Assembly: GCA_001774395.1 (NCBI GenBank)
Contig: MEZX01000002.1
Coordinates: 96,753 to 160,752, forward strand
Length of the DNA: 64,000 bases
Direction: 5' to 3'
From: Candidatus Berkelbacteria bacterium RIFCSPLOWO2_01_FULL_50_28
GTDB taxonomy: Bacteria; Patescibacteriota; UBA1384; 2-12-FULL-50-11
Below the pieces are notes generated by a model that saw only the letters and a list, made by a program, of their open reading frames with translations, did not search any database and was not told the DNA's origin. Below are positions 14,389 to 28,340 of the stretch, piece by piece. Numbering within the stretch: position 1 is the first letter of the stretch; each line of letters begins with the position of its first letter. Position numbers and translations under genes: made by a program.

Positions 14389-14507
14389 CACTTCGAGTCG
14401 CTGGGCTCCCTCAGTGTAAACTGAGGACAGGCGACCCGAACTACCCCGAGCGACCTGTCCTGAGCGGATTCGAAGGAAGTCGGGGGCGGTACATTACAGT
14501 CACATTT

Positions 14508-14528
14508 GCGCCCGTAGCTCAGTGGATA
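14508..14528 (+). repeat. Exact copy of the first 21 nt of tRNA-Arg(GCG)
   Basis: GCGCCCGTAGCTCAGTGGATA identical to 14599-14619. Confidence 0.95.
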
Positions 14529-14598
14529 CTCCCGAGTCATCCTTTGAGCTACTGGCACCAGCCAGTATTAGATGCCTACAGTTATGTATGTAGGCTTG

Positions 14599-24728: not shown

Positions 24729-24788
24729 TTAACTTATTGTAGCCGACTAGCTGATAGCGACCAACAGGAAGCTTTCTGTCGCGTGCGA

Positions 24789-24817
24789 CTGACTTTTGAG
24801 TGATAATGAGGTAAGAT
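24789..24817 (+). promoter_or_regulatory. Promoter upstream of the tRNA-Ser(CGA) repeat array
   Basis: CTGACT-17 nt-TAAGAT. Confidence 0.55.
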
Positions 24818-24831
24818 TTAGGTCGTTATCA

Positions 24832-24981
24832 GGAGAGGTCGCATAGCTCGGTTGATGTGAGGCCGCAGGCCGAAGACAACCGGGATGGAAACTTGGAGAG
24901 GTCGCATAGCTCGGTTGATTTTGAGCCAGAGGCGAGAAACAACCGGAGTACAAATCGGAGAGGTCGCATAGCTCGGTTGAT
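24832..24981 (+). repeat. Three copies of the 25-nt tRNA-Ser(CGA) 5' end separated by 38- and 37-nt spacers
   Basis: GGAGAGGTCGCATAGCTCGGTTGAT at 24832, 24895 and 24957 (third copy is the tRNA itself). Confidence 0.95.
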
Positions 24982-25043
24982 TGCGCCGGTTTCGAAAACC
25001 GGTATACCGCAAGGTATCGTGGGTTCAAATCCCACCCTCTCCG
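24957..25043 (+). tRNA. tRNA-Ser(CGA)
   Basis: GGAGAGG/CCTCTCC acceptor, CCGGT-TTCGAAA-ACCGG anticodon arm, long variable arm, TTCAAAT T-loop. Confidence 0.95.
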
Positions 25044-25045
25044 CA

Positions 25046-25399
25046 ATGGATGTAGATAAATGCTACAGCGATTGGATTAAGTTGATCGCTGAGTCGAACG
25101 ACAGTGACGAGCTGGTCACCCACTTTAGAGAACATGTCGGTGATCACTTTCACCATCATGACAACGAAGGTGAATTCGGTTTTAAAATATGGCTGACAGG
25201 GGTGGTCAACTTCCTTCGTGTATTTGAGCAGAAATTTACGGAAATAGAAAAAGCCGAACTACTTTTCCAGCTCTGTGTTTTCTACAAAGAAAAAGGTAAG
25301 GGCCCTAAACCGTCGTTCGATATTGATGTTTTTATGGAGAATTTTGATAGCAAAATAAAAGATTATTATCTTAAACGTAAATCAGCTAACAGAGACTAA
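25046..25399 (+). CDS. Hypothetical protein (117 aa), AT-richer than flanks
   Basis: ATG two nt after the tRNA discriminator; MDVDKCYSDWIKLIAES... Confidence 0.55.
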   Translation: MDVDKCYSDWIKLIAESNDSDELVTHFREHVGDHFHHHDNEGEFGFKIWLTGVVNFLRVFEQKFTEIEKAELLFQLCVFYKEKGKGPKPSFDIDVFMENFDSKIKDYYLKRKSANRD

Positions 25400-26335: not shown

Positions 26336-26431
26336 GAGTGCTTCCTCGATTATTGTTGGCCAGCAACGCTTAGCTTACTTTTATCACAATAAGCCCTACA
26401 GAGACACCCTGCCAAGCTCCGTTCTCTGTTT

Positions 26432-26612
26432 AACGCAAAAAGCCGACTGCGAAGAAGCGGCTTTTTAACGCAAAAAGCCGATTGTGAAACAACGGTTTTT
26501 TGTGACGCAAAAAGCCGATCACGAGGACCGGCATTTACGTTGTTACCTAAAGACAATGTCGGTAGGCAACAACTAAAAAAGACGAACAGAATGTCGTCTT
26601 TTTTAGTTGTTG
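26432..26612. repeat. Tandem hairpin array
   Basis: ACGCAAAAAGCCGA at 26433, 26468, 26505, each closing a hairpin; then two more hairpins including a perfect 19-bp inverted repeat 26567-26612. Confidence 0.85.
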
Positions 26613-26839: not shown

Positions 26840-27550
26840 TTAGCGCTTCTTGGACTTCTCCAAGTCGCGCGGGTCGGTGCCGGTCATCGCCTTGGTGAGG
26901 CGACAGAAGGCATCGTCAAGCTCGCGGGAGACGTTGTCTCCGCTATCTTGCGAGAAGCCGACTCGGCCTAGGTCGACCGAGAGGCCCTTTCTGCCGGTGT
27001 CTGCACCGAGGACATCGAAGATGCCGTTGTCGGCGCTCGAGAAGCCATCGGGGTCGGCAATCTCCACCGAAATTTCGGCAAAGTCCTTCTCCGAATAGGC
27101 AGATGCAAAGATCCCCTGAAAGAGGTTTTGCAGCCGACCCTGCATATCTTGGAATCCCCTGTATTGGGTCGCCGAAACATGCACAACTGAGCACCCTGCA
27201 ACGTCGGGTTTCTCGCCTCTTTCAAGCAGGCGTCCGAGTCGGAGGTCACGACCCCAGTACTTCGCCTGGGTCTTGACCTTCTTGATGATCAGATCGTCGC
27301 TGTAGCCGCTGTTGTTGTCGTCGACCATGAAATACAGTCTGGAACCCGTCGGCAGCACGACTCGGCCCGTGTTGGCGTTGAGCTTGTCGTTAGCGCGGTT
27401 TAGGTCGCCATCGAGGCGACTATCGACCGCCTGGGCGACCAACGAGTTGGCCGCCTCGCCTACCAAGTTGGCGGCGAGGTCACGAAGCGACTGCGCCGGC
27501 GCAAGCGCCGACGCGATGACGAAAGTTAATCCGATAATCGTTTTCTTCAT
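26840..27550 (-). CDS. Secreted hypothetical protein
   Basis: Signal peptide MKKTIIGLTFVIASALAPA; own promoter and downstream hairpin 26783-26809. Confidence 0.7.
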   Translation of the reverse strand: MKKTIIGLTFVIASALAPAQSLRDLAANLVGEAANSLVAQAVDSRLDGDLNRANDKLNANTGRVVLPTGSRLYFMVDDNNSGYSDDLIIKKVKTQAKYWGRDLRLGRLLERGEKPDVAGCSVVHVSATQYRGFQDMQGRLQNLFQGIFASAYSEKDFAEISVEIADPDGFSSADNGIFDVLGADTGRKGLSVDLGRVGFSQDSGDNVSRELDDAFCRLTKAMTGTDPRDLEKSKKR

Positions 27551-27777: not shown

Positions 27778-27797
27778 ATGGAGAGGTCGCATAGTGG
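27778..27797 (+). repeat. Copy of the tRNA-Ser(GCT) 5' end
   Basis: ATGGAGAGGTCGCATAGTGG identical to 27909-27928. Confidence 0.92.
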
Positions 27798-27910
27798 GCC
27801 GGAAGCGAGGGAACGCAGCTTTCGGCGGGAAATGAAAGATTTCCCCGGCGGCCACGTATGCCCAGTTTTTTGCTCGAGGACGATAGGCCGAGCTAGAATG
27901 TTGAAAACAT

Positions 27911-27997: not shown

Positions 27998-28061
27998 CCG
28001 TCGCCTCGCTGAAGCTCGGCTTTGGCGGACAAGTCCGCTAAGCTGGGCGTAAGCGGGACAA

Positions 28062-28301
28062 ATGAAATATGTATATCTACTGAAGTGCTCTGACAAGCGC
28101 ACGTATATCGGCTGTACCGGCGATTTGAAAAGTCGACTCGACAGGCACATGAAGGGGCATGTGCCCGCAACTAAACCAAGACGGCCAGTGACTTTGGTTG
28201 GATATTTTGCCCTTGTAAGCGAGGTAAGGGCGTTCGAGTTTGGGAAGTATCTAAAGACTGGTTCCGGCCGGGCGTTCTTGAGCAAACGAGTTCTGGGTTG
28301 A
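28062..28301 (+). CDS. Small GIY-YIG nuclease-family protein (UPF0213-like)
   Basis: YVYLL..TYIGCTGDLKSRLDRH..G...TKPRRP ... KYLKTGSGR. Confidence 0.9.
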   Translation: MKYVYLLKCSDKRTYIGCTGDLKSRLDRHMKGHVPATKPRRPVTLVGYFALVSEVRAFEFGKYLKTGSGRAFLSKRVLG

Positions 28302-28340
28302 GTCCCAGCCTCTTGCTCGTTTTTTTGCTAGACTGAAGCT

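Follow-up and report, generated by a model that had tools for sequence, protein, structure and literature searches.

Hairpin units that copy the 5' end of tRNA-Ser(CGA) in a Patescibacteria genome, and their possible origin as gene-less mini-elements

The only gene for tRNA-Ser(CGA) among the 44 tRNA genes called in the host genome (850 kb in three contigs, 92.8% complete) is preceded by two short hairpin units, each of which opens with tRNA nt 1-25 in an exact copy. The array belongs to a family of units, widespread and apparently undescribed in print, in which the end of a tRNA gene is copied beside the gene together with a hairpin. The anatomy of the array and the insertion of its units between a promoter box and the working tRNA are established, and roughly one in four to one in three tRNA genes of the family have the same layout. 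The explanation that is preferred here, at roughly an even chance of being correct, is that the units are gene-less mini-elements which insert at the end of the D-loop, each duplicating tRNA nt 1-25, and which are moved in trans by a single-domain GIY-YIG nuclease; we infer the enzyme, the chemistry and the order of events in this explanation.

The array and its transcription unit

In the window, by which is meant the whole stretch of 64,000 nt that was analysed, the 25-mer occurs in three exact copies whose starts are spaced 63 and 62 nt apart (Table 1), where 100 shuffles give a chance expectation of 0, and no further copy is found in the window at up to three mismatches. The repeat extends from the acceptor strand through the final D-loop base of the tRNA, and named records with an identical tRNA start carry the labels Berkelbacteria, Patescibacteria or Saccharibacteria. 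The first-pass annotation of this DNA had described three identical 25-nt repeats, the last of them being the start of the tRNA, with spacers of 38 and 37 nt between them, and its positions and lengths, the exactness of the repeats and the identity of the last one are all borne out.

Metagenome assembly is prone to error near tRNA genes, which is the general ground for suspecting that such a structure is an assembly artefact or a chance repeat. The array is, however, crossed whole and without a difference by public contigs of two runs, X1, which is possibly the source of the assembly, and X4, which belongs to a separate study, so that it is not an assembly artefact; with the zero chance expectation, the differences between the two spacers and the occurrence of homologous units in other genomes, this explanation is refuted and retains practically no probability.

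Table 1. Features of the array and of related tRNA loci, in positions of the window
Feature	Position	Strand	Remarks
Weak -35-like hexamer	24789-24794	+	sequence
Extended -10-like box, probable tRNA promoter	24810..24817	+	14 nt upstream of copy 1
Copy 1 of tRNA-Ser(CGA) nt 1-25	24832..24856	+	exact; acceptor 5' strand to D-loop end
Unit 1 spacer, 38 nt	24857..24894	+	GA-capped mini-hairpin 24858-24875, CAACC arm 24877-24881, short tail
Copy 2 of tRNA-Ser(CGA) nt 1-25	24895..24919	+	exact
Unit 2 spacer, 37 nt	24920..24956	+	GA-capped mini-hairpin 24922-24937, CAACC arm 24940-24944, short tail; homologous to unit 1 spacer
tRNA-Ser(CGA), intact	24957..25044	+	54.5 bits; begins with copy 3
Related 5' unit at tRNA-Arg(GCG)	14508..14598	+	21-nt copy of tRNA start, strong fold-back (p 0.005; z -4.7)
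Longer related 5' unit at tRNA-Ser(GCT)	27780..27910	+	18-nt copy and two hairpins
79-aa single-domain GIY-YIG nuclease gene	28062..28301	+	PF01541 E 4e-8; PDB 1zg2 (UPF0213) E 2.5e-5

A -10-like box similar to that of the array lies 9-18 nt upstream of the first tRNA 5' copy at 17 of 25 Ser(CGA) loci, irrespective of the presence of units, and the DNA upstream of the array aligns to that of unit-less orthologues at 79-81% over 67 nt. It follows that copy 1 occupies the position which the tRNA start has in unit-less relatives, and that the units probably sit inside the precursor RNA of tRNA-Ser(CGA). The promoter proposed in the first pass stands only in part, since its two hexamers are present as claimed (24789-24794 and 24812-24817) but score 8/12 and were not called by a consensus scan.

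The array is flanked by a divergent PilB-type ATPase gene on one side and an orphan gene on the other. Open reading frames which run over the array itself (24857-25399 on the + strand and 24747-25046 on the - strand) were treated as shadows, the stretch from 25046 having no Pfam or NCBIfam match. The interval from the Ser(CGA) gene to the Ser(GCT) gene, which varies among relatives, holds two orphan genes, at 25046-25399 (117 aa) and 26840-27550 (236 aa), neither with a Pfam or NCBIfam match. A terminator-like stretch at 26426-26495 consists of a 35-nt sequence in two tandem copies that are 83% alike, together with an inverted repeat.

Homology and folding of the spacers

The two spacers are identical at 25 of 35 aligned positions (homology p 0.003), and they are homologous to the spacers of two other Ser(CGA) loci, L030 and L021 (p 0.0005-0.02), where PilB shares 42% and 51% identity with that of the host. 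At the rate at which the spacers have diverged, the probability that one neutrally decaying 25-mer would still be exact is ~2e-4, so that a fresh or a neutrally decaying tandem duplication can be ruled out, the former in agreement with what had been proposed from the sequence at first sight. The copies also track the tRNA variant of the host: all three in this genome have C-T at nt 16-17, where C or T-C stands at all 19 loci of the collection that share this tRNA start, and the copies at L021 and L030 each match the tRNA of their own genome. Copies which follow the resident gene in this way, and which are exact despite the divergence of the spacers, are therefore either templated on that gene or homogenised with it.

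These properties bear on the main alternative, which is less likely. On this account the units are leader repeats kept by the host, a 5' counterpart of the tRNA-linked repeats (TLRs) of E. coli: they would be old duplicates of tRNA nt 1-62 in which the anticodon arm was remodelled to a stem-loop, they would have multiplied by slippage or unequal recombination, with the front kept exact by conversion with the tRNA, and they would be retained because the leader RNA gives rise to a small RNA or influences how tRNA-Ser(CGA) is processed or how abundant it is. Spacers that are homologous between genomes at 42-51% PilB identity speak for such a history, and they count against mobile mini-elements in so far as units recognisable over that distance fit long retention as well as recent spread. 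The same holds for the colinearity of the spacers with tRNA nt 26-62, which fits remodelled tRNA halves and is significant only for the second unit of L030 (p 0.0055, against p 0.12-0.20 for the spacers taken singly). L030 also retains the pairing segment GGTTGAT although the first 18 nt of its second copy are lost, which again favours host retention, as does the placement of the units within a probable transcription unit; the TLRs of E. coli are themselves transcribed, and three of them bind Hfq and CsrA (PMC8144298). A one-to-one orthology of the units with those of L030 (first with first, second with second) was considered and set aside as too weak, with scores of 38 and 37 against 32 and 36 crosswise.

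Comparison of strains yields evidence of the same kind. A diverged strain in run X12 differs at 3 of the 88 nt that make up copy 1, spacer 1 and copy 2, whereas the neighbouring genes differ at 55 of 583 nt (p 0.03), in a comparison that uses separate contigs and assumes a single strain from their depth. This preservation of unit 1 is what retention by the host would produce. The X12 contigs give no cover over spacer 2, for which absence, divergence or low depth may be the explanation. No variation in unit number and no joints were found in the contigs of runs X1, X4, X8 and X12, contigs being a form of data that drops rare variants, and this constancy counts against mini-elements.

Each spacer consists of a GC mini-hairpin closed on both sides by GA and of a CAACC segment which pairs with GGTTG of the repeat, in six Watson-Crick pairs and one G-U pair, and the 41-42-nt stem-loops of the two units have folding z-scores of -3.7 and -3.8 in windows picked after inspection. 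The pairing of this helix is retained in all 5 homologous units, so that the complementarity pointed out in the first pass is conserved; it shows no change on both sides in any of them, which weakens the case for host retention. The earlier proposal that the spacers keep a pairing sequence and a small hairpin is upheld for the CAACC arm and the GC mini-hairpin, both of which are present in both spacers, but not in its full extent: taken over the whole 25-mer, pairing with the native spacers does not exceed that with shuffled ones (p 0.43 and 0.47), and AACCGG, which also occurs in the anticodon stem of tRNA-Ser(CGA) itself, may be inherited rather than selected. The idea that the spacers shield the cloverleaf is unsupported, the acceptor helix of the tRNA having an equilibrium probability of 0.03 with the native spacers against a mean of 0.20 with shuffled ones, and this lack of protection is a further point against retention by the host. 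A D-loop intron was also considered and rejected, there being no match to an intron family.

In the sizes of its repeats and spacers and in having a promoter at its leading end, the structure is like a CRISPR mini-array, and the first-pass annotation had framed it in this way. A guide array of CRISPR or TIGR type, in which the tRNA-derived repeat would be a processing handle and the spacers would be guides, is nevertheless largely refuted and has very little probability. CRISPR arrays have regular identical repeats of a size like that found here, but their spacers are unique, mutually unrelated and matched in viruses, whereas the present spacers are structured and homologous both to each other and to units elsewhere; their 25-nt cores have no exact match in IMG/VR, and a comparison with 50,697 phage records, of the kind that had been recommended, returned nothing better than E 6. 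Rfam likewise gave no match to a CRISPR repeat or to any tRNA-linked-repeat-like family. The absence of cas genes from the window had already been remarked upon, and it extends to the genome, in which, at 92.8% completeness, cas1 has 0 matches in a search whose control rings in 7 of 14. Nop (PF01798) and IS110 (PF02371) have no match in the genome either, with the caveat that divergent Tas proteins may escape the Pfam Nop model.

CRISPR arrays and casposon target-site duplications grow as repeat-spacer-repeat structures by duplicating the target next to the promoter, and the likeness to the present array lies in growth by duplication of a 25-bp target beside a promoter; the differences are that no cas1 was found, that the spacers are not foreign and that the repeat is the 5' end of an essential gene. 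TIGR-Tas loci, as described in PMC12045711, have a Tas gene with a Nop domain beside the array, whereas the neighbours here are the PilB-type ATPase gene and the orphan, and the units do not follow the TIGR definition of an array, since each is a conserved hairpin in which a 3-4-nt loop varies, as judged by eye. CRISPR-sized mini-arrays at the tRNA genes of CPR bacteria are explained, in annotation, as false CRISPR calls.

Related units and nuclease cassettes in the lineage

A copy of the gene's own end with a hairpin is found at 15 of the 44 tRNA genes of the host genome, 7 of them with a 5' copy upstream and 8 with a 3' copy downstream (a ninth 3' match, 319 nt distant, was dropped as chance-like). 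In seven genomes of the family, two of which are near twins, end copies accompany 29 of the 127 tRNA genes that have full flanks (9 of the 5' and 22 of the 3' kind, against 1 in the wrong-side control), these genes coming from 100 regions chosen from 150 listed of 392 tRNA matches. Across the class the copied end measures 13-26 nt, and two further tRNA genes in the window itself carry related units (Table 1). No published description of such a class was found in the main text of openly readable papers.

At 23 orthologous Ser(CGA) loci, from which L044 is excluded because the pattern used to find it requires a copy, there are no units at 13, one at 8 and two at 2, so that the number of units does differ among relatives, as the first pass had suggested should be checked. 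The units also vary in form, most of those at other Ser(CGA) loci having just 13 nt of the tRNA and folding back on that piece. Both the unit-less loci and the variation in form stand against the view that the units are kept by the host. Among 35 distinct 5' units, 11 fold back better than shuffles at p <0.05. The GA-capped mini-hairpin, a motif defined post hoc, occurs on the sense strand in 15 of 33 3' units (two tandem twins being counted twice) and on the other strand in 0 of 33, over a background of 0.9% in random windows and 2.0% in shuffles; its strict form is found in only 5 of the 35 5' units (3 sense and 2 antisense), a scarcity which tells against mini-elements, while its occurrence on either strand tells against leader repeats kept for their RNA.

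A loose unit pattern, applied to 162 genomes of the class, was found in the host genome, in G012 and in six matches in five genomes without the hairpin or tRNA context, and a second pattern, applied to 22 genomes of the order, added one match, in another context. The 13-nt fragment of tRNA-Ser, searched in 400 genomes of the phylum, gave 2 matches (control 2), one of which is a real GIY-YIG cassette, and this form is rare outside the family among those genomes. In viral contigs the 25-mer has 0 matches, and the 120 loci at which the loose pattern occurs there were dismissed as chance, none being preceded by a tRNA 5' end.

The connection with GIY-YIG nucleases comes from cassettes which have the layout of the units and, in addition, a gene. 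Full cassettes at L015 (same class) and L318 (same phylum) consist of a 5' piece of tRNA-Ser, a hairpin, a GIY-YIG gene and the intact tRNA, and the displaced piece at L318, where the GIY-YIG identity was read by eye from the frame rather than by a profile scan, stops at the D-loop end as in the Ser(CGA) array. In the window, GC-rich hairpins, an intact gene for a 79-aa GIY-YIG protein and a decayed duplicate of the tRNA's T-arm and 3' end follow tRNA-Ser(GCT) in the stretch 28000-28317, which is a probable full cassette of the 3' type; this tRNA-Ser(GCT) gene, 3 kb from the array, also has a 5' unit. The 79-aa protein is, to judge from its sequence, a candidate for the kind of enzyme that could act in trans. 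Among the 28 best GIY-YIG matches from other genomes of the class (a long UvrC-like match and one broken gene excluded), 18 lie beside a co-oriented tRNA and 0 beside one in the opposite orientation, and 4 of these 18 are preceded by a 5' tRNA piece.

Several observations limit this connection. No GIY-YIG gene is present in any Ser(CGA) unit seen, so that these units are linked to the nuclease cassettes by shared layout only, and just one of the six short GIY-YIG genes of the host genome is adjacent to a tRNA, at tRNA-Ser(GCT); both facts weigh against mini-elements. The GA-capped mini-hairpin is only modestly enriched near GIY-YIG genes, at 14 of 34, the distal controls, which are mostly coding, giving 5 of 28. 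In a tree of 35 proteins, three GIY-YIG proteins with SRM-like flanks form a clade of their own (100/93), outside which the protein of the window and the other tRNA-linked nucleases are placed, again to the disadvantage of the mini-element explanation. The link between nuclease and unit is accordingly circumstantial, and the units would be a non-autonomous form of the GIY-YIG cassettes.

GIY-YIG genes occur in other settings as well. At L047 (G000:C2:366380-366592) one is inserted close to the start of the 16S rRNA gene of the host genome, in the manner known from CPR rRNA insertions, and at L049 and L050 (G000:C2:167182 and 348605) near-identical genes, each bracketed by short inverted repeats, occupy unrelated non-tRNA sites and are a recently mobile IS-like unit. 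The genes at L069, L072 and L079, in the class, are flanked by NTS/SRM-like hairpins, from which it follows that Ssn-like systems occur in Patescibacteria.

Proposed insertion and closest known systems

In the preferred explanation, a 37-38-nt hairpin unit would enter at the end of the D-loop while tRNA nt 1-25 is duplicated; the tRNA gene would thereby be rebuilt behind the inserted unit, the displaced 5' piece would remain next to the promoter, and a second insertion event at the same site would give the third copy. By analogy with SsnA, a single-domain GIY-YIG nuclease encoded elsewhere would nick the tRNA gene or the hairpin in the form of ssDNA, after which host repair would copy the tRNA end; the hairpin would be a recognition signal or would shield the occupied site from being cut again. 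Such mini-elements and retention by the host can both hold, if the remnant of an invader is retained under constraint.

A third origin is improbable, namely that recombinase-driven islands integrated in the 5' half of tRNA genes and left empty cassettes or attachment-site scars behind, one reason being that excision of an integrated island normally leaves a single site. Integration has as its standard mark a restored tRNA gene with a displaced fragment next to it (PMC4383910), as is found here, and one tyrosine recombinase and three matches to large serine recombinases are present in the genome. However, integrative islands carry a recombinase and cargo between the fragments, whereas only 37-38 nt lie between the copies here and the window has no recombinase gene; moreover, the units occur at many isotypes and at both tRNA ends, and their conserved hairpin is unlike the product of excision. 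One Y1 transposase match is present elsewhere in the host genome.

The nearest published structures are the TLRs of E. coli, of which there are one to five short units per tRNA gene, which share a transcript with their tRNA and whose function is mostly unknown (PMC8144298). Both kinds of unit hold an exact copy of the end of the adjacent tRNA gene, but TLRs follow the gene and repeat 18-19 bp of its 3' end, whereas the present units precede it and repeat nt 1-25, with a spacer that folds back on the copy. To judge from sequence, the array looks like a 5' mirror of the TLRs and fails their 3' definition; units of the 3' end, a kind with which the spacers share the GA-capped mini-hairpin, exist at other tRNA genes of the host genome. 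In its way of working the array may be like a target-duplicating insertion.

The Ssn systems (Chenal et al. 2025, PMC11893778) combine a single-domain GIY-YIG protein of ~80-95 aa with short directional hairpin repeats, beside which SsnA is able to cut ssDNA, in a layout that the authors liken to insertion sequences and to REP/BIME. The main text of that paper has no mention of tRNA or CPR and is not known to describe target duplication; its supplements list SRM-bearing genomes, which could include CPR. The NTS/SRM consensus hairpin is absent from the host genome, in which the motif has 0 matches at up to three mismatches, and this, with the position of the tRNA-linked nucleases in the tree, separates the units from Ssn. 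SegB, a free-standing GIY-YIG homing endonuclease of T-even phages, is enriched beside tRNA genes and drives the duplication of tRNA segments (PMC13096335), so that a tRNA-adjacent GIY-YIG gene and duplication are common to both cases; phage SegB, however, amplifies whole segments with full-length tRNAs, whereas the present units are chromosomal and gene-less and duplicate ends of 13-26 nt. The rRNA genes of CPR bacteria have non-intron insertions with GIY-YIG genes (PMC11270868), which agree with the units in bacterial group, in nuclease superfamily and in targeting a stable-RNA gene, but these are described for rRNA only, in a main text from which tRNA is absent, and have no end duplication or arrays. 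TRIP1 (PMC10888264) was considered as well and is irrelevant to the array.

A broader generalization is possible but doubtful, namely that Patescibacteria have an undescribed class of mobile DNA in which hairpin mini-elements moved by GIY-YIG nucleases enter either end of tRNA genes and duplicate 13-26 bp of the target; it is with the same reserve that arrays may be said to grow beside the promoter in a CRISPR-like manner without Cas1 or a known transposase. The Ser(CGA) locus would then record two successive insertions, and in any case it offers a clean two-unit example with homologues. Small stand-alone GIY-YIG nucleases are known today chiefly as ssDNA cutters and homing enzymes. If the preferred mini-element explanation is correct, such nucleases drive insertion with target duplication, about a quarter of the tRNA genes in these streamlined genomes bear nuclease footprints, and tRNA-linked repeats, unexplained since 1978, acquire a testable origin.

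Several other tRNA loci have features of their own. The tail of the 5' unit repeats several of the leader bases that precede the first copy at L011, at L014 and at tRNA-Leu(CAG) (G000:C3:39021), so that the duplication can include the leader, which is not so in the Ser(CGA) array. At L253 (G003:C7:4790-6155) two tRNA-Met genes are each followed by two identical tandem 3' units, which are either a very recent duplication or an assembly artefact. In the window, a hairpin-rich stretch behind tRNA-Ser(TGA) (14390-14490), in which no copy of a tRNA end was detected, is closely like the stretch behind tRNA-Lys(CTT) on contig C1. A tRNA-Thr(TGT) with a 349-nt intron called by ARAGORN lies at G000:C3:85502-85925, ~700 nt from a large serine recombinase match, and a tRNA with the anticodon TAT (Ile), which is rare in most bacteria, is called at G000:C3:78489-78561.
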